From positions 510,001 through 542,000 of the forward strand of contig NZ_CP053627.1 of NCBI RefSeq assembly GCF_013177435.1: a stretch of 32,000 nt of DNA, written 5' to 3'. Below, piece by piece: positions 4,617 to 32,000 of the stretch. Numbering within the stretch: the stretch's first letter is position 1; every line of letters starts with the position of its first letter. This DNA is from Xylella taiwanensis. GTDB taxonomy: Bacteria; Pseudomonadota; Gammaproteobacteria; Xanthomonadales; Xanthomonadaceae. The notes beneath the pieces were generated by a model. It did not search any database. It was not told where the DNA came from and was given only the letters and a program-made list of their open reading frames with translations. Position numbers and translations under genes: made by a program.

Positions 4617-5967
4617 AGTCGGTTCGCTTCTTCCTCTTAGTTTGGTAAAGCTGGAGGATGGATGTGAGCACATCCTATGCATTCTCTTATGGTGCTTCGA
4701 GAAGCGTTATCCAACGGATGATCTTTGTTTCTTACTTTTTACCAAAGACATTCATGACTCAGTTTGCCTAATATTCTATGTGTCCACCGATGAATATATG
4801 TTGTAACAGCATTGTTGCTTTGTCGTTTCTGATTTGTCTCTGGATGACGGCGTGTTCCAATGTGATATGTTGATTGGCGAATGACTTACCTGAAAAATCA
4901 AGAAAGTAGTCTGAATCTCAAAGCAAACCAGAGTGTCTCCACTGTTGCGGCATGATTTATGTTTTGCGTTCCCAATCCAGTTGGGTCACCTCTATATCGA
5001 TTCGGTGAGTGTCTTTACACTGGAACTGCTTCAGAAGGCTGAGGTCTTGTAATGCTGGGAACGCAGCGTTGCTGTGTGCACGAGAGATTTGTATTGATCG
5101 GACGCCAAGGGTTTACAAAACATCTGTTAAAGCAGCTTATTGAATAGCATGATGGCGGTTGTGCTCTGCACGGTGAATATGACGCTATGATGAATATTGA
5201 TGCGTCTTATTTTATAGATTCATTTTCTATCTTTCATGAATGCGGCATGGTTATCTCCCTTTTCAACGTTTGCTGATCTGTTTGCGTAAATGGTTTTGTT
5301 TCATAGAGAGCTGGAGCATACAGAATTTGGATAGTTATTGAACACTTGAAACGGCATGCTTCACTCAGCTAATGACATATCCTGCATCGAATCTGCTGTG
5401 GCCGATGTGGCGGATCGATGCGGTATTTGCACTGTATGTTTGGATGTTGAATTTTTTGAAGTGGCTCATAGAGATGAAATAGCATTCTGTAGCGATGTTT
5501 ACTCTCAGTACATTATCCAGTTGTATTTCAAACGTTGTAGTTGAATCCAGCGTACGATTAAAAACAATATCAAGTACCAACAGCTGCGTATCATTTCTTT
5601 CGTAGATACGATTCATGATGAAGCGCTGCGTTATTTTCTGGGATGATCGATACACTCCCTGTTGAATTTTATTTAGAGTCTTCTTTGATTCAACGCTTTG
5701 GGAACGTTGTATGACGCGTGATTGAAACGCAGAACCATGAAGATCGATCAGGTGATGCAGAGTACATCGTATGCTTTCAGGCTTCAGCGCATCAGTTCTT
5801 TTGATTTTTGGTGGCGCAAAGTGTTTGTGTCCCGCATGTATCGCAACGGTGCTCAGAATTTATTGTGCATTGTTACCGTAGAGTTGCTGCCCTCATCCTT
5901 GTGCCGCCTTGCCGGATCTAGTTTGCATGGCCGCGTGGGGGGATTCCTTTACTGCCGCCTTTACGCC

Positions 5968-7320: not shown

Positions 7321-8434
7321 TTAAAGATGGTTATGGATTTGTGTCAAGTTCTTTGCGAATCGAAGCCGTAGGAGGGAAGCTCAGATCTGATAGTGATCTT
7401 TATGATGCACGTTGGTGTTGTTCCTCAATCATGCACGTTCGATCTTATCGAGGATGAATGAGGTGGTGTTGTCCGGATGAAGGAGTGTGTGTGTGGAGGG
7501 AATCGTGTTTCACACACTGCTTGATGGTGTTGGACCGCATCCTTGACGTTACGGTTTGATGGGTAAGGTGCGGAGCATCAAGAATCACGTTAAGGTTAAT
7601 GCATTGGGCCGCTATACCTGGTTTCACCTCACGCTTGAACATGTGCCTATGGTCTGGAAGGTGTTGATGCCTTTTTGGAATTAAGGGGCGCTTGCCAATT
7701 GGGTCTGCAATGTGGACAGGTGAGCGGTGATTGCCTTTCTCCAGCCTAAAGTGCAAGGAGTGGAAGAGATTGGATTGTGGCTTTTACAAGGCACGTTATA
7801 TGTTCGAATACTTCTGTATCTGCTTTATAAGCAACACTGCGCTGGTGAATAAAATTGCTTGCAACGTTGTTGGATGTTATTGATCTATTCGTATTGCTTA
7901 TTTGAATCAATTGATGAGATATCTTGTTTGCTGATAGCCATCTTGGCGTGGTGTTGATATCTGGTAATCCAGCATCGGATGCAAATATAGGTCTTCGTCC
8001 AGGAGGTGAAAGAAGTGCCTGGAATTCACGGTGGCAGTTGGCTCACTACTTGTGCTGTGTCGGTATTTTGCCAGTGACTGGGTCTAAGGTAACCAACATG
8101 GGCGTGTTGCCATAGTGTGTTGTCGAGAGGGATGTTCTGGGGATCATGTGGCTTTATAAATCAGCAGCAGCGGTGTTTAGTTGTGAAGTCCCCATGTCAT
8201 TCCCAGTTTGTAAATTGCATGATTCTCTGTTGCGTCCTATGGTGATGCAAAGGCTCTGAAACACGTCATTTGTGTTTGTGTTTCTTGGTCTTTGTTACTA
8301 AGTTGAATAAATGAGGGAAGTGCGTTGTGTCGGCGCACAGCGTCCGGTTGGGCCTTCAGTGGCTTCGGAAAAGTCGCTTAATATTCAACTTGTTAATCCA
8401 TTTTGCTTGCAATCATTGAGTTCCTAATAGCATG

Positions 8435-9112
8435 TTAAAGTGCTTTAAGACATTGGGTCTCATTGTGCTGCTGTTCTGACTGTTTTGCGTGCATGGCTTC
8501 AGGGGCAAGCATCCTGCGCACTGGAGCGAAGCTGCGGCGGTGCTGTAGACATGGACCATGCCGTGTTAAAGCGGCAAGGTGTGCTGGTGTTCCGTATCCT
8601 TTGTGTTTGTCGAAGCCGTAGTGTGGATACTGTAGATGCAGCTCAGTCATATAGCGGTCACGGGTGACCTTGGCCAGAATCGAAGCTGCCATGATGGTGC
8701 GATCACGTGCATCGCCGCCGACCAGAGCTTCAGCGGGGCAGGGGAGATCTTTAGGTACACGGTTGCCATCAATCTTTGCGAAGCTGGCCACATGCGCTAC
8801 GCCTTCCACCGCTAAGCGCATGCCGAGCATAGTGGCTTGGTAAATATTAAGTGCGTCGATCTGTGTGCTGTCGATCATGACCACTTGATAGGCCAGTGCG
8901 CGCTCGACGATGTGAGCGTAGAGACGTTCACGGCATGTAGGGGACAATTGTTTGGAATCATTCAGGCCATTGATGCGTGCTCGCGATGGATCGAATACCA
9001 CTGCTGCGACTACGACTGGTCCGGCGAGCGGACCGCGTCCGGCTTCGTCGACTCCAGCGACAAGTACCGTGTTGGTACTGAGGAGATGTTGTGTATCAAA
9101 TAGGGAGACCAT
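8435..9112 (-). CDS. rnhB: Ribonuclease HII
   Basis: The 225-aa ORF has [28 protein letters not shown] and a typical RNase HII C-terminal half. Its position after lpxB is conserved. It overlaps the lpxB 3' end by 17 nt. Confidence 0.95.
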
Positions 9113-10325
9113 GGTTACTGGCTGTGTGTGCTGCTAATTCGTGACTCAGTGTCCCTGAGTTTTGCAGCGTGCCTCTAGGTAATAGCTCGGCGACTGCTTC
9201 CGCTGCACGTGCCGAGGCGTTACGGCGCAGTTGTGCGTGTAATGCCAGATAACTGCTTTGTAGTGCGGTCACCTTCTGAGGATGCCTGAACCAGTCCAAC
9301 AGCGCAGCGCATAGCGCCGGTGCGGTGCAATCATTCTGTATAAGCTCGGGCGCAAGGTCTTCTCCTGCGAGGATGTTGGGTAGGGCGAAGCGATCGATCT
9401 TCAGTAGCTTCAATGCTTTGACAATGCGATAAGTGAGTGGTGCGACTTTGTAAGCCACGACCATTGGCCGTTTGGCCAACATTGCTTCGAGGGTGGCCGT
9501 GCCAGAGGCCACCAGTACCACGTCTGCAGCCAACATTGCAGTGCGAGCGCAACTATCGAGCAAGTGTGAGTGCATGACGGGTAACGTTGAGTGCGAGAGT
9601 TGTTCGGCCAGTAGTGATTTGCATTGTGCATTTGCGGCCGGAATGACGACATGCAGCCCGGGTAGGTGTTCGGACAACTGCCCGGCGGCTTCTAAGAAGG
9701 TTGTGCCGAGTTGGCTAATCTCGCTATGGCGGCTGCCTGGAAGGACCGCCAGCACTGGGTTGAGAATGGGCAGGCCAAGCGTAGCTCGCGCTGCGGCACG
9801 GTTGGTTCGATAGGGAATCTCGTCGGCCATGGGATGACCGACGAAGCGTGCATCAATGCCGTAGCGTGCGTAAATAGGTGGTTCCATTGGGAATAGACAC
9901 AGTACGCGGTCGGCGCTAGCACCGATTTTCCGGGCACGTTTCTCGCGCCAAGCCCATACCGATGGGCTGACGTAGTGAACGGTGCGAATGTTACGTTGCT
10001 TGAACCAGCGTTCTACCGTTAGGTTAAAGTCTGGTGCGTCAATACCGATCAATACGTCGGGATGCCAGATGAGTGCACGCTTGCAGAATTCGTGACGTAC
10101 CTTTAATAGATGTGGCAGATGCCGCAGTACCTCGGTCAGGCCCATGACCGCTAGTTCGCTCGTGTCGAACCAGGTCTGACAGCCCGCTGAGCGCATCAGA
10201 TTCCCGCCGATGCCGACGAATTCTGCAGCAGGAAAGTGCATGCGCAGTTGCTGAATCAACCCAGCACCAAGTAGGTCGCCTGATGCTTCACCCGCAATCA
10301 GGGCGATGCGAGGCGCTTGGGTCAT
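9096..10325 (-). CDS. lpxB: Lipid-A-disaccharide synthase
   Basis: [24 protein letters not shown]... is a typical LpxB N-terminus. The start is taken at the ATG at 10325. The track ORF extends to 10523, but that part overlaps lpxA in another frame and reads as junk. The position between lpxA and rnhB is conserved. Confidence 0.93.
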
Positions 10326-11697: not shown

Positions 11698-12710
11698 GCT
11701 TTCTCCTTACGGACGGTCATCATGCGACGCACCAGCATATCCAGCTGTTTAAACCGTACAGCGTTTTTGCGCCAAGTACTATTGTCGGTTAATGGAGTAC
11801 CCGATGAGTACTCACCTGGTGTGTGAATTGAGTTGCGTACAACCGACTTGCCGGTGATCACGACTTTGTCACAGATCTCGAGGTGACCGACTACGCCAAC
11901 GTGGCCACCAAGCAGACAGTAGCGCCCAATTTTGGCGCTACCAGCGATGCCTGTACAGCCGGCGATCGCGGTATGTGCTCCGATCCAGCAGTTGTGTGCG
12001 ATTTGCACCAAATTGTCGATATGCACATCCTCTTCCAATACAGTGTCGCCAAGCGCACCACGGTCGATGCAGCTGTTGGCACCGATCTCGCAATCATCGC
12101 CGATCACAACGCCACCTAACTGCGGTATTTTGATCCAGTGTCCGGTTTCCATTGCCAGACCAAAGCCGTCGCCACCCAGCACCACGCCAGGGTGGACGCG
12201 TACCCGTTTGCCCAGGCGCACTCGGATGACCAAGGTGACACGTGCAACCAGCTCGCTGCCGTCATCGATGGTGCAATCATCGCCGATGATACTCCCGGTA
12301 CCGATGATGCAACCCTCACCGATGACGCTGCGTGCACCGATGCTGACAAATGCGCCGACATGCGCTGTAGGTGCGACACGTGCGCTTGGATCGACTGTTG
12401 CCAGAGGATGGATACCCGCTTCACGTGCTGGTGTTATGTCGAATAGTGCGGCGATCTTGGCGAAAGTGACGTAGGGGTCTTTAGCGATCAGTACTGTACC
12501 GGACGCTGCTTTGACATCGTCGGCATGAAGTACAATGACGCCCGCACGACTATCGATGAGCTGTGTGCGGTAGCGCGGATTAGCAAGGAAGCTGAGTTGC
12601 TTTGGACTCGCTTGTGCGAGTGTGGCGACTCCGTGGATATGGATGTTCCCGTCACCGAACAGTTGCAGATCAAAGCGTTCGGCGAGCTCTTGAGCGGTAA
12701 GGATTGGCAT
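11694..12710 (-). CDS. lpxD: UDP-3-O-acylglucosamine N-acyltransferase
   Basis: MPILTAQELAERFDLQLFGDGNIHIHGVATLAQA... is followed by long hexapeptide repeats, as in LpxD. The start is taken at the ATG at 12710. The ORF is open to 12758, so the start is uncertain by 16 codons. Confidence 0.93.
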   Translation of the reverse strand: MPILTAQELAERFDLQLFGDGNIHIHGVATLAQASPKQLSFLANPRYRTQLIDSRAGVIVLHADDVKAASGTVLIAKDPYVTFAKIAALFDITPAREAGIHPLATVDPSARVAPTAHVGAFVSIGARSVIGEGCIIGTGSIIGDDCTIDDGSELVARVTLVIRVRLGKRVRVHPGVVLGGDGFGLAMETGHWIKIPQLGGVVIGDDCEIGANSCIDRGALGDTVLEEDVHIDNLVQIAHNCWIGAHTAIAGCTGIAGSAKIGRYCLLGGHVGVVGHLEICDKVVITGKSVVRNSIHTPGEYSSGTPLTDNSTWRKNAVRFKQLDMLVRRMMTVRKEKA

Positions 12711-19530: not shown

Positions 19531-20088
19531 TCAGACTGTCATCAATTCCTGTTCTTTGGACTTGACTACTTCATCCACATTTTTGATTGCTTTATCGGTC
19601 AGCTTCTGGATGTCCTCTTCACTGTGGCGTACCTCGTCCTCAGTGATTTGCTTGTTCTTCAGCATATCCTTAATTTGCTGGTTGGCGTCGCGGCGGATGT
19701 TGCGGATTGCGACTTTGGTGTCCTCTCCATCGTTGTGTACGACTTTTGTGAGTTCTTTGCGGCGTTCCTCGGTGAGTGGTGGCAGGTTGAGGCGGATTAA
19801 TGTGCCGACGACGGTTGGCGTCAGGCCGAGGTCGGAAGCATAAATGGCTTTCTCGACTTCCTTCGACATGTTCTTGTCGAACAGCGTGATGACCAATGAG
19901 CGCCCTTCTGAGACACTGATGCTGGCGATCTGATTCAGTGGTGTATCGGTGCCGTAGGCCTTGATTTTGATGCCATCTAACAGTGACGGTGAAGCCCGGC
20001 CAGTACGGAGAGATGCCAGGGAGTTGCGCAGAGTGTCGATGCTCTTTGTCATGCGATCCTGAGCGTCGTGTTTGATTTGGTTGAGCAT
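19531..20088 (-). CDS. frr: Ribosome recycling factor
   Basis: The 185-aa ORF has LRTGRASPSLLDGIKI.AYG, PLTEERRKELTKVV and a typical Frr C-terminal coiled region. Confidence 0.97.
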   Translation of the reverse strand: MLNQIKHDAQDRMTKSIDTLRNSLASLRTGRASPSLLDGIKIKAYGTDTPLNQIASISVSEGRSLVITLFDKNMSKEVEKAIYASDLGLTPTVVGTLIRLNLPPLTEERRKELTKVVHNDGEDTKVAIRNIRRDANQQIKDMLKNKQITEDEVRHSEEDIQKLTDKAIKNVDEVVKSKEQELMTV

Positions 20089-20298
20089 CGCCTAAACGTT
20101 AATGATAAACCGTAGTTGAGCGATTATAGCTGGGACTGGTGCTTAGGGTTGAACCGAGCTGTTTTTCTGGTGAATCTCAAAGCGTTCTGAAAGTAGATGA
20201 AACGATGGCGTTGTAGGTGCCACTCTCGACGCCAGCTGCTCTGATCGAACTTGACTGCCGGACATGCCCCCCTCCCTTACTGCTTGCCTTCAAAACTT

Positions 20299-20758
20299 CA
20301 TCACTCTGCTGCGGCGTTGCTGAAGACAGTTGAAACTGAAATGAAGTGCTGTGTTGCAGTGGTGCGACGAGATGTTCTGTTCGCCCCAGTGGTAGTGAGT
20401 ATTCGAGCGGACAGCAGTTCTCGTCGTGTTGGAGTTGATCGTGCTGGTTATGTAGGGAGTGTGTGCCTCCCCATATGTGTTGTACGCGATGCTCAGTAGC
20501 GTGGGACTGATAGTCCTGTACATGTGCTGATGTGGTACAGCACTGGACATGAACAGCGATGATTATTGAATAGCGCACCTCTTGGTGAACAGCCTCTGTT
20601 GAGGTGACGGCTGCGTATTTCGAAGGGCTGTCGAGTGACGTACTGTCGGTGGAACCCATTGAGATCGTTTTGGGATGCCGCGGTGTGGTCTGTGATGAAT
20701 ACGATGTTGGCTTCAGCCTATGTCACCCCTGGACTATCCCTGGTCCAGGGGTAGAACA
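20299..20758. repeat. Direct repeat R, copy 1 (460 bp, non-coding), 210 nt upstream of frr
   Basis: It is identical base for base to 28619-29078 (offset 8320), checked block by block and against the ORF-track translations. Flanks diverge immediately on both sides. The terminal hairpin is cccctggac (20726-20734) paired with gtccagggg (20743-20751). Confidence 0.95.
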
Positions 20759-20818
20759 TGGATTGCACAGCCAGATCAGGTTCTTTGCCATTAATCGGTT
20801 GGGACTATTAGTTTTTTG

Positions 20819-20840
20819 TTTGCATATAATTTGCATATAA
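20819..20840. repeat. Perfect tandem duplication of an 11-mer (TTTGCATATAA x2)
   Basis: Read directly: tttgcatataa at 20819-20829 and again at 20830-20840, 61 nt from the end of repeat copy 1. Confidence 0.9.
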
Positions 20841-21093
20841 GTACCGGGCTTGCTGCTGGAGGAATCAGCGTACTGCCATAAGCATTCGGACAGGGCATCT
20901 CCATGTAGTGGTGGGCATCAGTGACGCTGCAGCGATGTTGACACTGTTGCAGAACGATCTGCGGTAATGCGGCAATGATGGCGGTATCTGCTGCTAATCC
21001 GGAGGCGCCGCCTCAATAGCCGGTTACATGCAGACACGATGCCAGGCCCAGGATGTGGACTGCGGAGTATCACCCAATCCCACATTTCCGCTA

Positions 21094-21850
21094 TCAGCGG
21101 CAATTCACCAAGCAGGTAATCAAAGATTTTGTTGTGACCCATGAGCGACGACAGTATTTTGTGCCACAGTATTTGGGTGAGATGACATACGTCGCAGTGC
21201 AGTCATTTCCAGTGATGTACAGGTTGTGCTTTGCCGAGTTTGGCAAAATGCGCTTAAAGCATTGGTATAATTCAATAGCTGTCTTGGAATACAAGGATTT
21301 CGATTCTGTCATTTGCCAGAATGGATGATGGCCAGTGCGGCTGAATTGATGTCGTCTTTCATCGCTGATGTTTAGGCGTTTAACTTCATTGATCCTGGCT
21401 ACAACCATGTAATTGATTACAAATACATGTTTATTCAGTGGTGCGTCTGCTTGATTGATGTGCATGCACTTAAGCACTTTTCGTTGATACAGTATTTGCG
21501 GCGATATCGTTGCTGGTCTGAATATCGTTGGCTTCATCAGTGACTATCGTGGTAGCCCATGGGTTAATTTCGATTTGGAACTGTCGTGCAAGCACAGGCA
21601 CTTGGACATAATTCGAGTGAGATTTGTACAAGGACTCAACGATGATTGGGCTGTGATCATGGTCTGGGACACACAGCATGATCACCTGTTTCTGGAGGTG
21701 TCCGTGCAGAGTATGTACATGATGTGATGTGCCACACCCCTGGGTGTGGATCGTAGTAGTGAAATATTCAAGTACAGCAATGCTACAGGGATGGCTCAGT
21801 ACGCTACTGCTAGCCAGAAACCCAGTTGATATACAGAATATCCTCGATTT
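21094..21850 (-). pseudogene. Frame-broken ORF remnants; faint resemblance to a calcineurin-like metallophosphoesterase (Icc/CpdA type); family call tentative
   Basis: Minus-strand fragments lie in three frames and are interrupted by stops: ...IEDILYINWVSG*, then ...HVHTLHGHLQKQVIMLCVPDHDHSPIIVE...FQIEINPWATTIVTDE..., then ...NKHVFVINYMVV...NLYITGNDCT... The order loosely mirrors phosphoesterase motifs (DxH, GD, GNHD/E, ..LDS.., HH, GHxH), but every motif is degenerate. The region is AT-rich. Confidence 0.2.
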
Positions 21851-23048
21851 TTTATTGCTTGACTGCCCTATGATCCGCTACAACGGATTCTGGATCGATT
21901 TCAAAATGATCGCTTAGATTGTTGCGTCGAGGTTGATCCATTCGCACGTATGCTTGTATTGCTCGAAGATTAGTCTCTGCTATCCGGAGGACTTGACATC
22001 CGTTCGCTGGTTCCTCCTATATGGAGCAAGCGAAACGTCTGCACCAGTATGCGATGAGTACAGTGCAGGTGTTTGTTTTTAATCTGCTAATCACATCCAA
22101 GCATGCCAAACTACTCGATCCGGCCAAGCGAGTGATGAACCACTCTTTCGGTATGCGATGGTTGCGCTGAGAGAAACTTTTTCTTGTCGGTAATGCCTAA
22201 AGAACAGAATATGGGCGTAAGCGTGAGGGAGATCAGGTGAATTTTAACAAAACTTATTTTTGTTTATCCGACTTCTGTCCGAGTTTCATCACTATACATG
22301 GATGCGTGTTAATCAAGAATCGTTATTCAGATCGAGTGGGTAGTTGGATGGTTTGCCTGCTGCATATTCATTGTTCACCCAACTACATTTATGACTGTTA
22401 TTCCGAAGTTACGTCCACTCTTACATCTTTTTCTATGATTGAATTCAATCGTGTTAATGGAGTTTGCGGTTGTTCAGTATGCTGTAGGAGTTTCGCTTGT
22501 TCATTGCAATGGGTCAGTGCACTGTAATCTTCAATCCAAACGACTTTTAAAAATTGTCTTTATTATCCAGCCGAATTACGTGTGGCTTATACGCACTCAT
22601 GTGCTTGGCAGGGGCGACGCATCGATAAACCTGCCAAGTTAAGAGTTGCGGTAGCTCGATTGGTTGGGCACACACTCGGATATTATCAGAGCAGATAATA
22701 ACTACTTCGGTCCGTACGTGGAGCGTAAGGTATTATGGAGTGTTTTTTCTACGATACGTGGTGGTACCTCACTGCACTGTGAAATCACAAAATATGCTTG
22801 CATGTCAGCGGCGCGTTGATGCTGGTATGTGTGATGTTGTTGTGACACGCCCCTTGTGTTTAGCTATCAGCTCATGACGTGTGCTGCGTTGTTGATTGTG
22901 CATGTTAGTCAATCGTCCCTTCCCACGTTGTGCTAGACGAACTGTCCAGCAGTCCGGAAGGGATTGCACCTCCACCCCTGTTCGTTGCCATGCATCATGC
23001 ATATAGTATGGAAAAGCATTTCTCTGGTGTTAGTGATTCACCATAAAT

Positions 23049-23060
23049 GGGGGGGGGGGG
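23049..23060. repeat. Homopolymeric G12 tract (C12 on the minus strand)
   Basis: Read directly: ataaat-GGGGGGGGGGGG-ctccat. It is intergenic, about 200 nt downstream of the FadL-family gene stop. Confidence 0.95.
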
Positions 23061-23064
23061 CTCC

Positions 23065-23111
23065 ATTAGTGGCGGACGCGTTTTTGCTGACGGTCCGCGC
23101 GTAGCACTAAT
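23065..23111. other. Imperfect inverted repeat/hairpin next to the G12 tract
   Basis: ATTAGTG-GCGGAC (23065-23077) pairs with GTCCGC (23093-23098) and CACTAAT (23105-23111), with a 6-nt bulge. The loop is gcgtttttgctgacg. No U-tract follows on either strand. Confidence 0.5.
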
Positions 23112-23259
23112 ATGTACGATGTGTTGCTATTGGCGGTATTTGATAGGCCAGTGAGGGCGCAGTGTATGGTTACTTGGTCGCTATCGGATACTGACTGTGG
23201 TGCAACCTTGAGAGGGCTCCCCTAAGTTTAGACGGATGACTTGGCAGTGTGCGCATTGA

Positions 23260-24591
23260 TCAGAACTTGTAGTTGATTGAAGCCGAAAGTAAGTCGGCAT
23301 TTACGTTATAATCACCGGCCAAGGTGCTACCTGTTGAGCTAATTTGCGCTACAGTCGGATTGCTGATAAACAGGTGCGCATAGCCGATGTTAAAATCTGT
23401 TTGCTTCGATGGTTTCCAAGTCAGGCCGAGCGAGAACCAAGTGCGACTGTTGTCCGGCACGCGTACGCCGCGGTACTTGGCGGTGGTTGGTGTCTGGTCA
23501 TAACCCAAGCCGCCGCGCAGAGTCAACATTTCGCTGCACCGATAGTCGGTTCCTAGCCCAACAAAAGTGCTGTCCCGATAGGAGAAGTTCAGCACGTTGT
23601 CGGGCTGATTTGATCCAAAGTCAATGGTCACTTTGTCGAACTTGCTCCAGGCAGTGCGAGTCATCTCAGCCATCACTGACCATCGGTCGTTAATGGTATG
23701 AGTGAAGCTCGCTGTTGCGCTGGCAGGCAGGCGGATCGTGGCCTTGCCTTTTGTATTGATGAATGTCCCCGGTGCAGCGACCGCCAGCACTGCAGCAGCG
23801 TTGCTAGGCACAGTAAAGTTGACGTTGCCGTTGTCGATTTTGTGTTCAACCTGAGAGCGGTAGCTGAAGCCAAGATGGGTGTTCTCATCGACGCTGAACA
23901 AGCCACCCAGCGTGAAGCCTCCTCTGGTATTGTTGCCTTTGATATGTGAGTAGCCATCGGCACTACCCGGGGCAAAGCTTGGTACACCAAGCGAAGCGAG
24001 AATGCTGCCGAAGTCGATTGCATTACTCAAATCCACGCTGAGACGCTCCGCAAACACTGCACCGCCGAACGACACGTATGGGTTGATGTCATAGGAAAGG
24101 GCTACGCCTAGGTCAATTGCTTGTAACTTGCTATTGATGCCTTGATAGCGTCCGGTCCAGTTGCGGCCATATTTGGTACTGAAACCGAACGGTACGTTGA
24201 GCGATGTCCCCAAATGTAAGTTGTTGTTATCTCCAAAAGGTATATGGAAATAGGACACAGGCAGCAGCGCCACCATGCCGGCATCACCACCATTGTCGCC
24301 GCTGATTGAGCTACCATTGCTGTAAACCCCTGGGGCCCCACGATACTTGGCGGAAAATCTGACCGTGCTCAGATCGGCTTGGAATTGTCGGCCGTCTAAT
24401 TGGCGCATGCCAGCCGGGTTGTTGACGATGATGGCTGCGTCGCCCGAGGCACTTGCCGCGCCTGCGAACGAACGGCCCAGAGCCTTGGCACTGTTTTCCT
24501 TTAATTGGAAGGCAGCGGCGTGAGCTTGACTCACGTAAAGCACGCTAGCGATTGAAGTAAGGCGAATTACAGTAAAAACGCTTCTAATCAT
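23260..24591 (-). CDS. FadL/OmpP1/TodX-family outer-membrane transporter for hydrophobic compounds
   Basis: It has a signal peptide ending SQAHA|AAF and the family N-terminal hatch motif FQLKENSAKALGRSFAGAASASGDAAIIVNNPAGM. The alternating beta-strand pattern ends ...SASINYKF. An AGGAGA Shine-Dalgarno lies 6 nt before the ATG. Confidence 0.85.
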   Translation of the reverse strand: MIRSVFTVIRLTSIASVLYVSQAHAAAFQLKENSAKALGRSFAGAASASGDAAIIVNNPAGMRQLDGRQFQADLSTVRFSAKYRGAPGVYSNGSSISGDNGGDAGMVALLPVSYFHIPFGDNNNLHLGTSLNVPFGFSTKYGRNWTGRYQGINSKLQAIDLGVALSYDINPYVSFGGAVFAERLSVDLSNAIDFGSILASLGVPSFAPGSADGYSHIKGNNTRGGFTLGGLFSVDENTHLGFSYRSQVEHKIDNGNVNFTVPSNAAAVLAVAAPGTFINTKGKATIRLPASATASFTHTINDRWSVMAEMTRTAWSKFDKVTIDFGSNQPDNVLNFSYRDSTFVGLGTDYRCSEMLTLRGGLGYDQTPTTAKYRGVRVPDNSRTWFSLGLTWKPSKQTDFNIGYAHLFISNPTVAQISSTGSTLAGDYNVNADLLSASINYKF

Positions 24592-24804
24592 GCGGTGTTC
24601 TCCTGTTGAAAGACCTCTGCTTGGGTGTGTCTTAGGTGCCTGTTTTGCTATCTGGCTAAAACTAGTCAGTAGATGCCTGAGTCCCTTTCGATGGACTTAT
24701 TGATGCTGTACTGCAAGTACACGTGAGATGCTAACTACAATATAGTAGGCGATTGTAGGTATACGGAATTGGTGATCGTTCCCAAGTTGGTATTGTGCCA
24801 ACCT

Positions 24805-25497
24805 ATGTTTGTATCTATTCCTTCACGCAATCGACCGATTTGGCGTTGGGCGGTCCCATTGCTTTTTGTCGCTGTATCGATCACTTTCCTGTGGTCGATC
24901 TGTAGGCCAGGACAAGCACGCAGTACGCTGTGGCTGGATTGGGGGGCACTGTCGGGTGGCTTCTCTCGTCCACGTGACTTGTGGGCAACCTTGCAAGGCG
25001 GCAGTTTGATGCGTCTGTTTACCGCCCTGTTTCTCCACGCCGACTGGGCTCATTTGTTAGGTAACCTCGTGTTCCTGCTGATCTTTGGGTTGCCAGCCGA
25101 ACGCATCCTCGGGTCGTGGCGGTTACTGTTGCTGTTTCTGCTTGGCGGCGCATTGGCTAACTTGGCTGCAGTATTGACCATCGGTAGCCCGAATCACGTG
25201 ATTATCGGCGCTTCTGGTGCAGTTTCGGCGCTCATCGGTAGTTACTTGGCGTTGTTTCCAGGAGCTAAGTTAGGAGTGGTATTGCCGTTGGGTCTATTTC
25301 TAGAGTTTATCCGGGTTCCAGCGCCTCTTCTCATCGGAGTTTGGGCGCTGCTGCAGGTAGTATTTGCCTACACTGGCCCGGCTTTGGGTATGGTAGCTTG
25401 GTCGGCGCACCTGGCAGGGTTTGTATCTGGTGTTGTCTACGGGGGCTGTGTACGCGCGGCAATTGTGCGGCGGCTGCGTCAGCGACACGGGTTCTGA
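24805..25497 (+). CDS. Rhomboid-family intramembrane serine protease
   Basis: The multi-pass membrane protein has the rhomboid motifs HADWAHLLGN, GASGAVSALIG (catalytic Ser) and AHLAGFVSG (catalytic His). The start is taken at the first ATG (24805). A TTG at 24769 is also open. Confidence 0.85.
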   Translation: MFVSIPSRNRPIWRWAVPLLFVAVSITFLWSICRPGQARSTLWLDWGALSGGFSRPRDLWATLQGGSLMRLFTALFLHADWAHLLGNLVFLLIFGLPAERILGSWRLLLLFLLGGALANLAAVLTIGSPNHVIIGASGAVSALIGSYLALFPGAKLGVVLPLGLFLEFIRVPAPLLIGVWALLQVVFAYTGPALGMVAWSAHLAGFVSGVVYGGCVRAAIVRRLRQRHGF

Positions 25498-25593
25498 ACG
25501 TGTGCCCACCGTGGTGGCAATATGCGTAGCACTACATGAAATGTATAGCCAACCGAAGAAGAAGGGACAACAGATGGCCGTATAATGCATCGC

Positions 25594-25914
25594 ATGTCAA
25601 AAACGCTGTACAAAATTACTTTCGTCAATCATGGCAAGCTTTATGAGTTGTATGCGCGACGCGTGATCAGCAGTCATCTATGGGGTTTCAACGAGATCAG
25701 CGAGTTGGTGTTTGATATGCATGGCGGGCTTGTGGTCGATCCCATTGAGGAACAGTTGCGCTATGAGTTTGCCAACACTAAAACTTTGCATCTGCCAATG
25801 CAGAGCATCGTGCGTGTCGAAGAAGTGGATAAGAAAGGCCAGTCTGTTATTCGTGATGCGGATACTGGTGAGAAGGTTGTGACCCCTTTTCTGGCACCAT
25901 TCAAACCACGCTGA
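25594..25914 (+). CDS. DUF1820-family small protein
   Basis: MSKTLYKITFVNHGKLYELYARRVISSHLWGFNEISELVF...VDPIEEQL..EF....LHLPMQSIVRVEEV resembles the conserved DUF1820 pattern as I remember it (YKV.F.NQG.VYE.YA....S.L.GF.E.E..VF). The start is taken at the second ATG. The first (25585) overlaps a TATAAT box. Confidence 0.7.
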   Translation: MSKTLYKITFVNHGKLYELYARRVISSHLWGFNEISELVFDMHGGLVVDPIEEQLRYEFANTKTLHLPMQSIVRVEEVDKKGQSVIRDADTGEKVVTPFLAPFKPR

Positions 25915-26630
25915 TGTCAATGATTATGTTGTCGCTGATGTGGTTAGGGCACGCAATACTTTTTCTTTCGTAAACTATCGATATAGTTTTTATCATTCAA
26001 ATGCCATTGGTGGTCAGAGTGATTGTATTGCGTGCAGGTGAGGATTGAGAGATACCCAATACAGATCGAACATGGGTGTTCTCATCACATGTTTTGTGTG
26101 TTTTTCTGCTCGATATCACACGTGCAGTACTGCCATAGATGAGATATCTCTATGATGTTTGTTTCACTGACTGATAAATCCATTGATTTCCACGGCTCCC
26201 TTACATTTCATCTGGATCTGCAACAAGGGCGAGAAAACGATCAGAGTTGAACTCGTATTGCGGTAGCTTATAGCGCCGCCCATATCATACAGAGCAATGT
26301 ATCACTCAATATATTCACGCGCACCCGCTCATAGCAATCGAACGGTGTTCATTTGTTTGAATATGTAGTGCCATGATCAACCTGGGTTATGCAACTGTAT
26401 GGACCGGCACTCAAACCGTCTTACTTAAGGATCAACGTCGTAAGACATGGTGGGTAGCGGGAGCTATGTATTTCCCCTTATCTATATCAATGAACTGTGA
26501 GAATTGCTTTTCAGGATGTTTTTGAATACATGTGGATTAGTACGGAATGCCCACTTTTGAATCAGGTGGACCGATACAGGAGAGAAATATTGTGTATTTT
26601 CCGATACCGAATCTGCGTCCTCTTCTGGGC

Positions 26631-26659
26631 AGACACAGTGTTAGGCAATGTGTGATAAT
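26631..26659 (+). promoter_or_regulatory. Candidate sigma-70 promoter of rnpB
   Basis: The -35 is aGACAc (26631-26636), followed by a 17-nt spacer and the extended -10 TGtGATAAT (26651-26659). The predicted start about 7 nt downstream coincides with the 5' strand of the P1 stem. Confidence 0.45.
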
Positions 26660-26665
26660 GACCAA

Positions 26666-27021
26666 CGGTGAAGTCGGCTGGGCAGCCGCGTCATCCGAGA
26701 GGATGCCGAGGAAAGTCCGGGCTCCATAGGGCAAGGTGCCAGGTAATACCTGGGCGGCGTGAGTCGACGGAAAGTGCAACAGAAAGATACCGCCAATGTT
26801 CCTTTACAGGATTTGGTAAGGGTGAAATGGTGCGGTAAGAGCGCACCGCGAGTCCGGTGACGGACCGGCACGGCAAACCCCACCTGGAGCAAGACCAAAT
26901 AGGGATCCGATGGTGTGGCCCGCGCTGGATCCGGGTAGGTTGCTTGAGCACCGTGGTGACACTGTGCCTAGATGAATGGCTGTCCATGACAGAACCCGGC
27001 TTATAGGCCGGCTTCACCGTT
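26666..27021 (+). ncRNA. rnpB: RNase P RNA, bacterial type A
   Basis: It aligns with E. coli M1 RNA landmarks: GAGGAAAGTCCGGGCTCCATAGGGCAaGGTGCCAGGTAA, AGTGCAACAGAaAG, GGTAAGGGTGAAAtGGTGCGGTAAGAGCGCACCG, CCTAGATGAATGgCTGTCCAtGACAGAACCCGGCTTATaGG. The P1 stem pairs cggtgaagtcggc (26666-26678) with gccggcttcaccg (27007-27019). Confidence 0.93.
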
Positions 27022-27472
27022 TCCCCATTAATAATGTGTGCGGTTAACTTCCCAAGTTTTGTTCGCTGATTAAATCAATGCCATGCAGCGATCAGACCCG
27101 ATGACGGTCTGTATCTGATCAGAGAACTGCAACGTTGTACTCACATCTTCGGCTGCAAATGTCCAGTTGGCCTCAAAGCGTGATCGGTAAAGTTAAAGTT
27201 TGTGTCGTGCGCCACGGAATTTTTTATCGCCCGCATAGACGGCTGGTATCTGAATATTTGTAGATTTTCACATCGCTTTGGATCAGCTGCTCCAACTTAA
27301 TGCTGGGTATTATCTACTTCGTGACCAGGGGAGGCTGGCTGTGTCTGACAGTGGTGATCAATAAAAACATTGATATGTTGGTCAATTCCATGTTTCCCCG
27401 TATCAGTTTTGAAGATTTGCTATCACTTTCAAAGCCATCAGACAAAATCACCCAAGTAGATCGGACACCAAT

Positions 27473-28273
27473 TCAATCAGCCTGATTCACTAAATTGACG
27501 AGTTCCTCCTTGTCGAAACCAGCGAGTAACCGTGCTTCCAGATTGAATGGTTGATGCAAGTATCCTCTAGCATACTCGCGCAAAAGTACTTTGAAATGCG
27601 TATATGGCTCCACACCAATGTGTGTGCAGTACCAGCGATACCAGCGTGAGCCAGCTGCGACGTGAGCCACCTCTTCACGCAGGATAATTTCTAAGATGTC
27701 GGCGGTGGCGTCATCGCCCAACGCGCGTAGCTTAGCGATCATCCCTGGAGTCACATCCAGGCTGCGTGCTTCCAACACCCTTGGTACCAATGCCATGCGT
27801 GCTAGACCGTCATGTGCAGTTTTCTCGCACATTTCCCACAGGCCATTGTGTGCATCGAAGTCGCCGTAGTCGTAACCGAGGGCATGTAATCGCCCACGTA
27901 GCAGTGTGAAATGACGCGATTCGTCATCGGCCACATTCACCCAGTCGGCATAAAATGCTTGCGGCAAGCCGCGAAAGCGGTAAACCGCGTCCCAAGCCAA
28001 GTCGATCGCATTCAGTTCAATGTGTACGATTGCATGCACAAATGCGGCACGCCCTGCGTTGCTGCCCAGGCCACGCTGTGGTAGTGCGCGCGGATGCACT
28101 AGATGCGGTCGTGCCGGGCGCCCTGGCATGGCGATCGGCACCGGAGGCGGTGCTTCAGTTGGTAGTTTAAGCTGTCCCAGGCGAAACGCGGCAGCGTAGT
28201 GATGGGTTAATGCGACCTTCGCCTCCGGGGCGGCGGCCCGCAAGCAGGCCCAGGCGGCTTGCAACAGATCCAC
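27473..28273 (-). CDS. DUF455 ferritin-like (putative di-iron) protein
   Basis: The 266-aa ORF has a GTG start with an AAGGGA Shine-Dalgarno-like element upstream. Four carboxylate/His motifs are spaced as in ferritin-like di-iron proteins: HIELNAIDL, DESRHF, LEARSLD, REEVAHV. The overall pattern matches DUF455 as I recall it. Confidence 0.75.
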   Translation of the reverse strand: MDLLQAAWACLRAAAPEAKVALTHHYAAAFRLGQLKLPTEAPPPVPIAMPGRPARPHLVHPRALPQRGLGSNAGRAAFVHAIVHIELNAIDLAWDAVYRFRGLPQAFYADWVNVADDESRHFTLLRGRLHALGYDYGDFDAHNGLWEMCEKTAHDGLARMALVPRVLEARSLDVTPGMIAKLRALGDDATADILEIILREEVAHVAAGSRWYRWYCTHIGVEPYTHFKVLLREYARGYLHQPFNLEARLLAGFDKEELVNLVNQAD

Positions 28274-28618
28274 AGTGTTCCCTTATTTCGGATGCTAGCG
28301 CATATTGCTCTGATAGTTTGCATCATAGCTAGCGGCTCGAACCATGTCAGGCCATTGGTGCCAAGTAGATGCGTGTTTATGCATTCCTTGGGTGCGACGA
28401 AGACAAAGATTTCATAATTCACACGCTTAAGAGTTGGACTTGTAACGATGTCGCACCGGTCTTCATCGCTTATTTGCCGCAGTAATGGGTTTGAGATCAC
28501 TATTAAAACTAATTAATTCGTCTCCTCCACTTTTTCAGATATCTATTTTCATGGACAGTGTGCTTCCCAGAAATCTGGGGCAGGAAAGATCTGGCAGGTA
28601 GTCGTTGAAGGGATGTCG

Positions 28619-29078
28619 CATCACTCTGCTGCGGCGTTGCTGAAGACAGTTGAAACTGAAATGAAGTGCTGTGTTGCAGTGGTGCGACGAGATGTTCTGT
28701 TCGCCCCAGTGGTAGTGAGTATTCGAGCGGACAGCAGTTCTCGTCGTGTTGGAGTTGATCGTGCTGGTTATGTAGGGAGTGTGTGCCTCCCCATATGTGT
28801 TGTACGCGATGCTCAGTAGCGTGGGACTGATAGTCCTGTACATGTGCTGATGTGGTACAGCACTGGACATGAACAGCGATGATTATTGAATAGCGCACCT
28901 CTTGGTGAACAGCCTCTGTTGAGGTGACGGCTGCGTATTTCGAAGGGCTGTCGAGTGACGTACTGTCGGTGGAACCCATTGAGATCGTTTTGGGATGCCG
29001 CGGTGTGGTCTGTGATGAATACGATGTTGGCTTCAGCCTATGTCACCCCTGGACTATCCCTGGTCCAGGGGTAGAACA
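28619..29078. repeat. Direct repeat R, copy 2 (460 bp, non-coding), 59 nt downstream of pyrH
   Basis: It is identical to 20299-20758. The terminal hairpin lies at 29046-29071. Flanking sequences are unrelated to those of copy 1. Confidence 0.95.
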
Positions 29079-29137
29079 GGGCATGTCGATGACAACAAAG
29101 CCAAGCAAGCGCCTTTACATGGGTATACCATCGTTTT

Positions 29138-29869
29138 TTAGCCCCCTGAGTTGCGGCCCTTGACCAAGGTGCCAATCTCCTCGCCGTGCAGGATGCGTAA
29201 TAGCACGCCTGGTTGCTCGATGTCGAAGATGCGTAATGGTAGGTTGCTGTCACGTGCTAGTGCGAAGGCGGCGGTGTCCATCACTTCCAGGTTCTTAGAG
29301 ATGACTTCGTCGTAAGTCAGCATGCTGTACTTGACTGCGTCGTCGTGCTTTTCTGGATCTTTGTTGTAGATGCCATCAACCTTGGTGGCCTTTAACAGCA
29401 AGTCTGCGCCGATTTCAATTGCGCGTAGCGCTGCACCCGAATCGGTGGTGAAAAACGGATTGCCAATGCCAGCTGCGAAAATTGTGATACGGCTCTTCTC
29501 CAAGTGGCGGATTGCACGGCGGCGTATGAAGTCTTCGCATACGTTGTTGATTCTGATCGCGCTCATCACTCGCACTTTGGCGCCGAGTTTTTCCAGTGCG
29601 TCTTGCATTGCCAATGCGTTCATTATCGTAGCTAGCATACCCATGTGGTCACCGGTCACGCGGTCCATCCCTTTGGCAGCCAGACCTGCGCCACGGAAGA
29701 TGTTACCACCACCGAGGACCAAAGCTAACTCGGCACCAGCATTTTGCGCCTCAATGACTTCGCGCGCCAATCGGTTAATGACATTCGGATCAATGCCGTA
29801 GTCTGCATTCCCCATCAACGCCTCTCCTGAAAGTTTGAGAAGAACGCGGCGATAGGCGAGTTTGGACAT
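29138..29869 (-). CDS. pyrH: Uridylate (UMP) kinase
   Basis: The 243-aa ORF has [68 protein letters not shown] and [13 protein letters not shown]. Confidence 0.97.
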
Positions 29870-30286
29870 GGGATATCTCGATTATTGAGGGGTAATTAAA
29901 CAATCTAATTTTAACGGAGGCTCACATGTTGTGCGGCGGGCAAAGGAACAACAAAGCAAGTTTGGTGGAGATGTGTCATCAAATGAGGCACAAGCACCTA
30001 TATGCAGTTATGCAGTTATTGTGCTTGACTTGGTACAGTGTTTTCTTTGGAAGTTTGCAAGGCGTGGCGATGCCAATGCAAACGACCTGATTGCCGCATA
30101 CCGTCAGCTAAGTAAGCGTTAAAGAAATGGTAAGCGCCCTTGTTATAACACGTGATTGTGGTGTCGTGCTGCTTGAATTTTCACAGGAAGTGTTCGATCA
30201 CATAACGGTGTCCTGACTATTTAAGGTTGCGCTTGTGGATATGTTGCACTTCGAGAAATCACGATGTGTTTTGATAAGACATGGCA

Positions 30287-30313
30287 GGTGCTTCCAAATA
30301 CTAGGGAAGCACC
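30287..30313. other. Perfect 9-bp-stem hairpin in ORF-free DNA
   Basis: GGTGCTTCC (30287-30295) pairs with GGAAGCACC (30305-30313), with a 9-nt loop aaatactag. No U-tract follows on either strand, so it is not called a terminator. Confidence 0.5.
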
Positions 30314-30588
30314 CTTGAGCAATACAGTATCGTTTGGATGATTAGGTGATTATTATGTGATTTTTGTGCCGATACACTTGTTGTTGCTTGGTAACAATAG
30401 TGTGATTCATTTTTACTGATCTTCTTGAAAAGCTTGGTGATGTCATATGGATGATTTATCAAACGGTTGAGTTAAGGATTCAAGCATTCCTTAGTTTCTT
30501 GACTGAAACATGACATGCGCCCAGTTGGTACATCTGTGTCCCCGGCGAGATAATTCAAAACAACACTTGAGCGCTGTTTAAGGTTAAT

Positions 30589-30602
30589 CCCCCCCCCCCC
30601 CC
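30589..30602. repeat. Homopolymeric C14 tract
   Basis: Read directly: ggttaat-CCCCCCCCCCCCCC-aactggtc. It is intergenic, about 720 nt upstream of the pyrH start. Confidence 0.95.
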
Positions 30603-30805
30603 AACTGGTCATATATGTGCTTTCCTGGCAGTGCCGCACTGCTTAAGGACCATGCGGCTCGAGCCGGCAATGGCTCTGCCATCGGTATGTTTAAGATGAA
30701 TTCGATAAAGAGCATCTATAAAAAAGTACGTTAAGTTGCTTATTTTTGACGCATAAAGCGTCAACGCTTATTTCAAACCAAGATGTGTAAGATGCCTTGT
30801 TGAGA

Positions 30806-30833
30806 AGGAGGTCTGTGCAAGGAGGTCTGTGCA
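30806..30833. repeat. Perfect tandem duplication of a 14-mer (AGGAGGTCTGTGCA x2)
   Basis: Read directly: 30806-30819 and 30820-30833. It lies in ORF-poor DNA. Confidence 0.9.
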
Positions 30834-32000
30834 GTGTTGATATGGCCGGTTTTTTCTCGAAAACAGTTCTTGCTTTGGGGAGGTCAGAACGACACATCTT
30901 GAGGAGGTTGGGAGGTGCTAATCTCGTTGAACAGGGCGGAGTCATCATCTAGTTTCACTTATCTGTGCAGGCGATGCCATCACCGATGTGGAGGTGTGTT
31001 CCACCGGCCGCCCACGCTCATGGTTGAGTGAAGCTTCACGGAACCGATGTAATGGCGTGAGTGTGACCGAATTTGGAGAGGAGCCGAAGCGATCTTGTCT
31101 ACAAAGCAATGTCACGCTGAAGGAACTTAAGGCACAACAAGAACGGTTGCAGGGATTGTGTGCTTTCAGCATCCTGCGTAGATGGTAGCTACTCTGTCCA
31201 TGTGTACCGCACAACAGCGTGTGTAGATGCTGAAGGTCGGGATGGTGCATCTCGATCGATGTGTCAGTGCAGCGTTGCACCAAGCTGAACGTTGTTGCAG
31301 CCAAATTTAAACCATCTCACCTTGATCATTGTGTGCATCCTGTGCGATTGCTAACAGTCTTTCACCACGGCTGGCATTGCTGTCCATCACTTAGGGAATG
31401 CCCAGTGTCGCTGGCAAGCCGATATCGCTGTGCCTACAGCTGGGATGAAGGAATAACAAGCCTACCTTGGTGCCATTGATGCGATGTGCAAGCCGAGCCA
31501 AACAGATCCAAGGTGCAGGGAGCACGATAAGTCCCCGCGTGTCGGCATGTTGTATAGCGGGTAGTGGGGAATGTGTGACGGGCAATCTCGTTCCGGTAAC
31601 CATACAGTTTGAATCAGTGATGGTTGATGCGCGCAAGGTGGTAGATTCCGACACCTAGTACGCCTTTACGCAGATGGGATGGGATATCCAGGATCTGACC
31701 TTGTGCTTGCCGATAGCCTTCACTGCAATCTCCCAATGAGCGGCGGTTGCCAGCTAAGCCAATATCCCATACGGAGGTACTATGTTTTGCCAAAGATGCA
31801 GCCAGAACGTGGGTTGCCTTTGACTCCAACGCATCGGGTGTTGGCCAAACCGTGACTACTTGGTATACCAGGGGCGTACTGAATGTGATCGCCGTGCACG
31901 CAGTGCCGATCTGCCCCATTCGATGCGCATCTGATGCCAGTGCAGATGGAACCAGCTCACACGCAGCACAGTATTGTGGATATTAACTGGCGAGCACGGC

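Follow-up and report, generated by a model that had tools for sequence, protein, structure and literature searches.

In Xylella taiwanensis, a 460-bp direct repeat (hereafter R) lies at both edges of the DNA between pyrH and frr. This repeat is probably the product of a young, lineage-specific and non-tandem segmental duplication, in which the copy upstream of frr (copy 1) gave rise to the copy on the pyrH side (copy 2) and which did not split pyrH from frr. An earlier reading of the same DNA from its letters alone, here called the sequence-only reading, had offered a segmental duplication and a very recent event among its explanations, and we keep both as the best account. The window, i.e. 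the whole stretch analysed, spans 32,000 nucleotides of contig NZ_CP053627.1 (positions 510,001 to 542,000). All genes proposed previously (FadL, rhomboid, DUF1820, DUF455, pyrH, frr and rnpB) were confirmed by Pfam or Rfam. The features of the locus, in window coordinates, are the following:

19531..20088, minus strand: frr, ribosome recycling factor (PF01765, RRF, E 3e-66)
20089..20298, minus strand: native frr upstream region outside R, defined by a four-way alignment of X. taiwanensis, a Japanese MAG, X. fastidiosa and X. rufipogonis
20121-20175, outside R: promoter-like conserved block (ATTCACC ... TATAAT) in the frr upstream region
20299..20758, no strand: R copy 1, non-coding DNA upstream of frr, read as the donor or native copy
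20725..20752: perfect 10-bp inverted repeat ACCCCTGGAC N8 GTCCAGGGGT, 6 nt from the R end
20759..23259, no strand: AT-rich non-coding spacer
23260..24591, minus strand: FadL/OMPP1-family outer membrane protein (PF03349, Toluene_X, E 4e-89)
24769..25497, plus strand: rhomboid protease (PF01694)
25585..25914, plus strand: DUF1820 protein (PF08850)
26670..27019, plus strand: rnpB, class A RNase P RNA (RF00010, 329.7 bits)
27473..28273, minus strand: DUF455 ferritin-like protein (PF04305)
28610..28618: 9-mer GGGATGTCG, target-site-duplication-like, abutting copy 2
28619..29078, no strand: R copy 2, read as the derived copy
29045-29072: copy-2 counterpart of the 10-bp hairpin
29079..29088: 10-mer GGGCATGTCG, target-site-duplication-like, abutting the other side of copy 2
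29138..29869, minus strand: pyrH, UMP kinase (PF00696, AA_kinase; annotated as UMP kinase [Xylella taiwanensis])

The perfect repeat described in the sequence-only reading was recovered by exact-match extension in a window free of N: the copies are identical at 460 of 460 positions with an offset of 8320, and a repeat search of the window returned the same pair, cut to 300 nt. Both copies have the same orientation, lie 8.3 kb apart and are the only two in the 32-kb window. Copy 1 begins 210 nt from the frr start and copy 2 is located 59 nt downstream of the pyrH stop, spacings that the ORFs reproduce, and 345 nt upstream of DUF455. Beyond the ends of R, the identity of flanks of 50-200 nt is random (22-34%). 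Since an old duplicate under partial gene conversion would leave residual homology past the ends, such homology was sought, and none was found; flanks of 400 nt align locally no better than shuffled sequences.

The sequence-only reading had interpreted the interval as an insert bracketed by R, the removal of which would restore a pyrH-R-frr order, as after Campbell-type integration. It had also named two findings that would together speak against this, namely the same intervening genes in relatives without a repeat, and R as a common dispersed repeat; the first of these, the gene arrangement, is present in X. fastidiosa and ‘X. rufipogonis’. The order pyrH-rnpB-DUF1820-rhomboid-FadL-frr is common to both species and lacks R, with rnpB in the same place and relative orientation and FadL in the same position. 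As judged from this shared gene order, the separation of pyrH from frr appears to be ancestral for Xylella as a genus, rather than the work of R-mediated integration. DUF455 is intact at the locus only in X. taiwanensis; X. fastidiosa retains an 88-nt DUF455 remnant between pyrH and rnpB, and a DUF455 ortholog was absent among its matches. In Xanthomonas, DUF455 comes after purF and the DUF1820-rhomboid-FadL trio sits at a different locus, and in X. albilineans the rhomboid, DUF1820 and FadL genes likewise form a syntenic trio. Because DUF455 and this trio sit apart in Xanthomonas, the interval appears to be an old mosaic of pieces from different Xanthomonas loci rather than one insert. We suppose that older rearrangements in the Xylella ancestor placed rnpB, DUF1820, the rhomboid gene and FadL, originally together with DUF455, between pyrH and frr.

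The two copies differ in their surroundings. The frr-side boundary of copy 1 (20298/20299) falls within a motif that all three Xylella species have conserved, and from this boundary 110-157 nt of the copy are homologous to X. rufipogonis (as far as ~20409 with blastn and ~20455 with nhmmer). For these reasons copy 1 would be the native one, in its ancestral sequence context; no direct repeat or target duplication was found in its flanks. Copy 2, where the sequence-only reading had seen no short target duplications, is enclosed by the near-identical 9/10-nt direct repeat GGGATGTCG / GGGCATGTCG, which is imperfect by one indel. Among the positions in the window, a fraction of 2.7e-4 shows an equally good match directly at the two sides of a segment, and it is because of this flanking repeat that copy 2 looks like a duplicative insertion. 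R is absent beside pyrH in X. fastidiosa and X. rufipogonis, but both carry deletions spanning the site, so that its absence there is uninformative. Indeed, the X. fastidiosa alignment ends ~30 nt past the pyrH stop, and no empty acceptor site, defined as pyrH ... CGACATGCCC-TTCAACGAC ... DUF455 without R, was recovered. In a Japanese X. taiwanensis-like MAG (94% ANI), the frr contig begins 168 nt upstream of frr and misses R by 42 nt, and the DUF455 contig measures only 951 bp; this genome is too fragmented to show the acceptor site, and a search with the pyrH C-terminus found no partial pyrH belonging to it.

Under the duplication model, a copy of a 460-bp native non-coding stretch upstream of frr would have been placed near pyrH, 8.3 kb from its source and in unchanged orientation, with the 9/10-nt target-site-like duplication left behind at copy 2. 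The insertion would most likely have proceeded through a template switch during replication or repair, or by a copied fragment being captured where a staggered break had opened; R is rich in hairpins, which may have made either route easier. The template switch is offered as a conjecture, because the 9/10-mer is imperfect and the flanks of the donor showed no microhomology to the acceptor site. The event resembles templated insertions of the FoSTeS/MMBIR type in that arbitrary native non-coding DNA is copied nearby in the same orientation, with sharp borders and identical copies, in that a short duplication flanks the inserted copy, and in that the donor is prone to secondary structure. It differs from them in the lack of microhomology at the R junctions, and the mechanism proposed here is inferred. 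Such events are known chiefly from eukaryotes and from experimental systems in E. coli.

Once duplicated, the copies could only undergo gene conversion or slow divergence. Recombination between them would, as the sequence-only reading had pointed out, excise an 8320-bp circle carrying rnpB; since this gene is presumably single-copy and essential, the pair would not be collapsible by RecA-mediated deletion. With zero differences in 2 x 460 nt and rates known from X. fastidiosa (3.2-7.7e-7 per site per year), the duplication would be younger than about 4,000-10,000 years, if no gene conversion has taken place.

Two further observations weigh against this model. Firstly, the position of the copies at the pyrH and frr edges of the interval would be a coincidence, the chance of which we roughly estimate at 1 in 5 to 1 in 10, given that few intergenic spacers are available. 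Secondly, a neutral duplication gives no account of the strong predicted fold of R. The plus strand folds at -183.8 kcal/mol with a z-score of -4.3 to -4.8 (minus strand, -3.3), as compared to a mean of -0.36, a standard deviation of 0.97 and a minimum of -3.1 in 38 control windows. The 10-bp hairpin belongs to this unusually stable fold. As to coding capacity, the 160- and 156-aa ORFs through R gave no Pfam match, and none of the eight ORFs running through R was ever called as a protein in an exact look-up; they are treated as non-coding.

Two other explanations deserve closer consideration, each of which we regard as unlikely. According to the first, the pair is ancient: R was duplicated when a block entered the pyrH-frr spacer by Campbell-type or R-mediated integration, and gene conversion has since prevented the copies from diverging in X. 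taiwanensis, whereas copy 2 was deleted in X. fastidiosa and X. rufipogonis. This would explain why the copies occupy both edges of the interval parting pyrH from frr, it also predicts the native junction between copy 1 and frr, the deletions in the relatives cover the copy-2 site, and the sharp borders fit conversion limited to the duplicated tract. However, the interval combines pieces of at least three ancestral neighbourhoods, and pyrH is also separated from its usual upstream partner, which does not suggest the entry of one circle. An ancient pair would also need a pyrH-R-frr spacer of 729 nt, as compared to 73-264 nt in relatives with adjacent genes, and neither R nor its flanks showed similarity to the pyrH-frr spacers of these relatives. 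Furthermore, it leaves the 9/10-nt direct repeat around copy 2 unexplained, and conversion must have continued without a break while the genomes diverged by about 15%, with copy 2 being lost twice independently. No integrase, recombinase or transposase was found in the interval, all ORFs of which correspond to FadL, rhomboid, DUF1820 or DUF455. The AT-rich stretch of ~2.5 kb noted previously (20759-23259) indeed has a GC content of only 0.42-0.48; it gave no Pfam signal (six-frame, 20200-23300) and its ORFs gave no PHROG signal, and hence no trace of a decayed integrase, transposase or phage gene. Identical direct repeats bracketing a multi-gene interval, from which an 8320-bp circle could be released, do recall the attL/attR sites of prophages, ICEs and genomic islands. 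Unlike these, the R locus has neither an integrase nor a tRNA target, R is far longer than typical att cores, and the bracketed genes are ancestral residents that occur in all Xylella species, there without the repeat.

The second explanation holds that R is a non-autonomous mobile element, MITE-like or of another type, which is dispersed over more than two genomic copies and relies for its movement on a transposase acting in trans that generates 9-10-bp target duplications. The 9/10-mer at copy 2 would be such a duplication, and in being small, non-coding and hairpin-rich, with a perfect subterminal hairpin, R resembles MITEs and other non-autonomous IS derivatives. Unlike these, R has no terminal inverted repeats; the window contains no inverted repeats of at least 30 nt, and R itself only short internal or subterminal hairpins. 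Copy 1 is not flanked by a duplication, and only two copies are known from the 32 kb. Moreover, the frr-side 110-157 nt of copy 1, including its boundary, is conserved upstream sequence in other Xylella species, which indicates that R covers a piece of native DNA and is not a discrete element. Lastly, blastn against plasmids and phages gave no match, and neither did exact 28- and 34-mers of R against IMG/VR and JGI metagenomes. The view of the sequence-only reading that the locus does not look like a classical mobile element thus holds, in that no integrase, transposase or terminal inverted repeat was found.

A related idea, which we consider quite improbable, is that R represents an undescribed small structured element with a 9-10-bp target duplication, either a mobile, non-autonomous DNA lacking terminal inverted repeats or a structured RNA copied back into the genome. 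The frr-side copy would then be an old domesticated insertion and the pyrH-side copy a fresh transposition. It is very unlikely that R encodes a structured non-coding RNA, the second copy being a functional gene duplicate that possibly arose via an RNA intermediate. The plus-strand z-score lies beyond those of all 38 controls, and the insertion of a copy with a short target duplication would be in line with this possibility. However, Rfam returned nothing for R at the gathering score or at E<=1 (the region 20000-23300 gave only a chance miRNA match), and no plus-strand promoter or terminator was convincing beyond chance. Conservation in the sister species extends over only about 150 nt, with too few homologs for covariation, so that the signal is thermodynamic only, and the window shows no evident reverse transcriptase.

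That the pair arose in assembly or polishing, through artificial duplication or homogenisation of a segment that the cell does not carry as two perfect copies, is scarcely credible: mis-polishing with multi-mapping short reads could yield perfect identity, but the same arrangement was present in 24 of 24 contigs read, the second complete X. taiwanensis genome (CP087686.1) carries both copies in identical form, and the PLS229 assembly was built from 228x ONT plus Illumina data. Long-read assemblies resolve both copies, and contigs of more than 1 Mb were found in 29 collection blocks, CP087686.1 among them. In seven collection blocks the FadL gene resides only on contigs of 5-10 kb, which is what short-read assemblies interrupted at each copy of a genuine repeat of at least 460 bp would produce around the 7.86-kb interval. 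R thereby accounts for the recurrent interruption of contigs at this locus in short-read assemblies of X. taiwanensis. In several assemblies the proteins are numbered consecutively in agreement with the same order, and a 2014 draft gives DUF455 to FadL the numbers EWS76993-76996, with frr (EWS77303) and pyrH (EWS77522) standing apart. A tandem duplication of the whole 8.3-kb unit with precise loss of one interval was rejected, as it involves two events and does not predict the 9/10-mer.

Read as a young duplication, the R pair would represent a clean natural example of small copy-paste duplication with distinguishable donor and acceptor, trapped in place, as any deletion between its two members would take rnpB with it. 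R could serve as a lineage marker for X. taiwanensis, a quarantine pathogen. Otherwise the practical lessons are modest, and R would be of more interest if it were mobile or RNA-encoding. The relocation of rnpB into the broken pyrH-frr junction would constitute a genus-level synteny marker for Xylella rather than a recent insertion. The cluster rpsB-tsf-pyrH-frr-uppS-cdsA-dxr-rseP-bamA is also disrupted elsewhere: pyrH and frr are independently parted in Lysobacter, with BlaR1-like and CzcD genes between them, and in Pseudoxanthomonas, where no pyrH lies within 10 kb. In contrast to these cases, the intervening DNA in Xylella holds the essential rnpB and is conserved genus-wide, the 460-bp repeat being a later addition in one species that would be unrelated to the disruption. 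Apart from its FadL-proximal ~900 nt (about 22335-23259), which are shared with X. rufipogonis at 63%, no homolog of the AT-rich spacer was detected in the loci examined in the relatives.

The two copies of the 460-bp direct repeat R, at 20299-20758 on the frr side (copy 1) and at 28619-29078 on the pyrH side (copy 2), were identical at 460 of 460 positions, with an offset of 8320 and 0 ambiguous bases. This was established by base-by-base match extension and is exactly what the sequence-only reading had claimed; a repeat search of the window recovered the same 20299/28619 pair. Immediately beyond both ends of R the identity was random, and gapped local alignment of the 400-nt flanks scored no higher than shuffled sequences, leaving no residual flank homology. 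The borders of R are therefore sharp. ORF, Pfam and Rfam calls bore out the distances noted earlier from copy 2 to the pyrH stop (59 nt) and from copy 1 to the frr start (210 nt), as well as the identities of frr, pyrH, the interval genes for FadL, rhomboid, DUF1820 and DUF455, and the following RNA gene:

26670-27019, + strand: rnpB, class A, full-length (Rfam RF00010)

The spacer at 20759-23259 is AT-rich, and no recognisable coding remnant was found in it when all frames were searched.

One origin first suggested for the interval between the two copies was Campbell-type integration of a circle that split pyrH from frr. Among the Lysobacterales relatives examined, most have pyrH next to frr (73-264 nt apart), and none has the interval genes close by. 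X. fastidiosa (e.g. CP009829.2) and 'X. rufipogonis', the proposed name for a wild-rice lineage, share the order pyrH - rnpB - DUF1820 - rhomboid - FadL - frr with the window, and rnpB matches in position and in relative orientation in both (Rfam). R was found at neither position in the loci of these two species. The presence of interval genes between pyrH and frr without the repeat speaks against the proposed integration, and is one half of what the sequence-only reading had itself named as evidence to the contrary. X. rufipogonis has been placed as sister to X. taiwanensis, with X. fastidiosa branching outside both (Briand et al. 2025, PMC12542735). The locus identities are 87.2% for taiwanensis-fastidiosa, 85.1% for taiwanensis-rufipogonis and 82.8% for fastidiosa-rufipogonis. 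Under either topology the sequence comparison indicates that the interval arrangement is older than X. taiwanensis, and that the pyrH/frr split is old and unconnected with R.

The usual neighbour of pyrH is tsf, in an rpsB-tsf-pyrH-frr cluster. X. fastidiosa and X. rufipogonis instead carry eda and three tRNA genes ahead of pyrH. In Xanthomonas, DUF455 directly follows folC-dedD-cvpA-purF, the DUF1820-rhomboid-FadL trio is found at a separate locus, and rnpB is at neither of these. Since these loci are scattered in Xanthomonas and pyrH is without its usual neighbour, the interval is a mosaic of several old rearrangements, not one integrated circle. In X. fastidiosa CP009829.2, 88 nt of decayed sequence from the 3' end of DUF455 remain (L066:7586-7673; aligned to window positions 27553-27634, blastn E 7e-8), and tblastn matches these residues weakly. 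The remnant lies where DUF455 would be expected, between pyrH and rnpB, and in the matching orientation. DUF455 was therefore probably ancestral at this locus too, and was lost from X. fastidiosa and X. rufipogonis; in the latter, pyrH abuts rnpB with nothing between. DUF455 thus seems to have been lost twice. An intact DUF455 gene was seen at the locus only in X. taiwanensis among the Xylella species.

Separation of pyrH from frr also occurs in other Lysobacterales, making the junction a recurrent breakpoint. L. enzymogenes (among the Lysobacter loci L018-L025) carries genes for a BlaR1-like M56 peptidase and a CzcD-type cation efflux protein between pyrH and frr, and Pseudoxanthomonas MAGs (L002/L004/L008) have serA-like and FAD-oxidase genes upstream of frr, with no pyrH within 10 kb.

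We then consider which copy of R is native. Multiple alignment of the sequence upstream of frr places the edge of copy 1 that faces frr (20298/20299) within a motif that all three species conserve, reading CGCCGCAGCAGAGTGATG|AAGTTTTGAAGG in X. taiwanensis and GCCGCAGCAGCGTGAAG|AAACTTGGAAGG in X. fastidiosa, with X. rufipogonis alignable across the same columns. With R alone as the query, blastn follows the homology to X. rufipogonis inside copy 1 up to 20409 (74% over 77 nt, E 4e-8); nhmmer carries it on to about 20455 (E 1e-25, contiguous block). Therefore, at least the frr-side 110-157 nt of copy 1 are ordinary resident DNA, and the frr junction is native. The pyrH-side copy duplicates native DNA from upstream of frr. 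Copy 2 is abutted by GGGATGTCG (28610-28618) and GGGCATGTCG (29079-29088), which differ only by a 1-nt indel and which had been missed when short target duplications were reported to be absent. In a scan of the window, a flanking match that good across a segment occurred at 2.7e-4 of positions, and copy 1 has no such flanking direct repeat. Copy 2 thus resembles an insertion accompanied by a short duplication of its target; an empty acceptor site would read ...TTGTCATCGACATGCCC-TTCAACGACTACC.... Non-coding DNA of X. taiwanensis and X. rufipogonis is only 63-74% identical; so little change in the decamer argues that the event is much younger than the split of these species.

We propose that a single duplicative insertion would account for the pair. 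Its route may have been a template switch during replication or repair, or capture of a copied fragment at a staggered break; either is conjecture, because no donor/acceptor microhomology favouring a specific route was found. The hairpin-prone sequence of R may have promoted polymerase stalling. If RecA recombined the two copies with each other, a circle of 8320 bp with rnpB on it would be excised, and this deletion should be lethal. The pair would therefore be shielded from collapse, leaving homogenisation by conversion or divergence as its only fates.

An old duplication, made in the course of the original rearrangement and followed by uninterrupted gene conversion, is unlikely. Both relatives have deletions over the copy-2 site, so that the absence of R there does not count against it, but it requires an ancestral spacer of 729 nt, loss on two independent occasions and conversion sustained over a long time, and leaves the flanking decamer unexplained. 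A dispersed or mobile repeat would fit the target-duplication-like flank of copy 2 and the structure of R. It is nevertheless improbable, as copy 1 stands in a native context, R has no terminal inverted repeats, and no further copy was found in the available data. R has no relatives in the plasmid, phage, viral-contig and metagenome collections and no match to a protein family (Pfam, including a six-frame search) or to Rfam, and an exact look-up of its ORFs found no annotated protein.

The + strand of R folds at -183.8 kcal/mol with a z-score of -4.8 (-4.3 on recomputation) and the - strand with a z-score of -3.3; 38 control windows of 460 nt from the same sequence gave a mean of -0.36, an sd of 0.97 and a minimum of -3.1. 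A perfect 10-bp hairpin lies 6 nt from one end of R. Folding well beyond that of shuffled or neighbouring sequence is the one unusual property of R (20299-20758, 28619-29078). This thermodynamic signal is the sole support for a structured RNA gene, possibly retro-copied, which we consider very improbable. A promoter-like block for frr at 20121-20175 (- strand; ATTCACC...TATAAT) lies outside R, as does a promoter-like site of DUF455's own; neither gene therefore depends on R for a promoter. The block (ATTCACCAGAAAA ... GCACCAGTCCCAGCTATAATCG) is almost invariant in X. taiwanensis, X. fastidiosa, X. rufipogonis and an X. taiwanensis-like MAG from Isodon japonicus in Japan (GCA_052692375.1; 94% ANI; fragmented assembly). 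This conservation suggests that frr gained or kept its own promoter once parted from pyrH.

Proteins named X. taiwanensis match the frr, FadL, DUF455 and pyrH products of the window at 100% identity. Both R copies are also intact in another complete genome, CP087686.1 (2.82 Mb), which differs from window positions 9531-30087 by one 1-nt gap, with 0 mismatches. The neighbours of frr and of FadL were unchanged in all 24 contigs read. The FadL gene was found on contigs >1 Mb in 29 collection blocks and only on 5-10 kb contigs in 7 blocks, and frr on 20-50 kb contigs in 5 blocks. Such a spectrum is expected of short-read assemblies when a real repeat exceeds the length of the reads or k-mers, so that the 7.86-kb interval is left isolated as its own contig. 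In the numbering of the 2014 draft, DUF455 to FadL are EWS76993-76996, with frr (EWS77303) and pyrH (EWS77522) elsewhere. An assembly artefact is thus extremely unlikely, given two genomes and 24 contigs in agreement, short-read contigs that break as at a real repeat, and a type-strain genome (PLS229) closed with 228x Nanopore plus Illumina data (PMC8176220).

Attachment sites (attL/attR) around an integrated element resemble the R pair superficially, but the interval is without an integrase, relatives show no empty site, and R differs from the ancestral target. Such an element thus failed every defining test run (integrase, empty site, repeat equal to target). With MITEs the pair shares one feature, a flank resembling a target duplication, and this at copy 2 only; terminal inverted repeats are absent, and the available data contain no further copy. 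The R pair fits native DNA copied to a second site, in a small dispersed segmental duplication. Of the origins first suggested, segmental duplication remains the best reading, and the more dramatic integration is not supported. Events of this kind are known; the present example appears to be undescribed. Given the strong fold and the target-like duplication, there is still a small chance that R represents something new.

About 900 nt of AT-rich spacer adjacent to FadL (window 22335-23259; L069:11343-12216 in the X. rufipogonis locus) are 63% conserved between X. taiwanensis and X. rufipogonis and absent from X. fastidiosa. No ORF, Pfam, PHROG or Rfam signal was found in this block, and by sequence we classify it as conserved non-coding DNA. 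The regions compared upstream of pyrH were window positions 30244-32000, L066:5584-6001, L069:2213-2637 and L075:1-4700. In contrast to X. fastidiosa and X. rufipogonis, with their eda and three tRNA genes, the window contains no tRNA at all; it has low-GC DNA (0.41 at 30001-30500) with small ORFs without family matches. An HTH_31 repressor-like gene lies further out in CP087686.1, and in X. rufipogonis the small-ORF island at this site is a different one (DUF7673). The region upstream of pyrH looks like a variable island or prophage-remnant site beside tRNAs.

Low GC (0.40-0.45) was also observed at 4001-6000, between the following features:

2408-3850, - strand: S-adenosylhomocysteine hydrolase gene
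5722-7320, + strand: ORF with only a partial AMP-binding domain

The 31 nt at 4288-4318 are 77% similar to 26477-26507, probably by chance. Lastly, the three 33-nt direct repeats at 12072-12323 inside the lpxD ORF (67-100% identity to the reference copy) are ordinary hexapeptide-repeat coding sequence.
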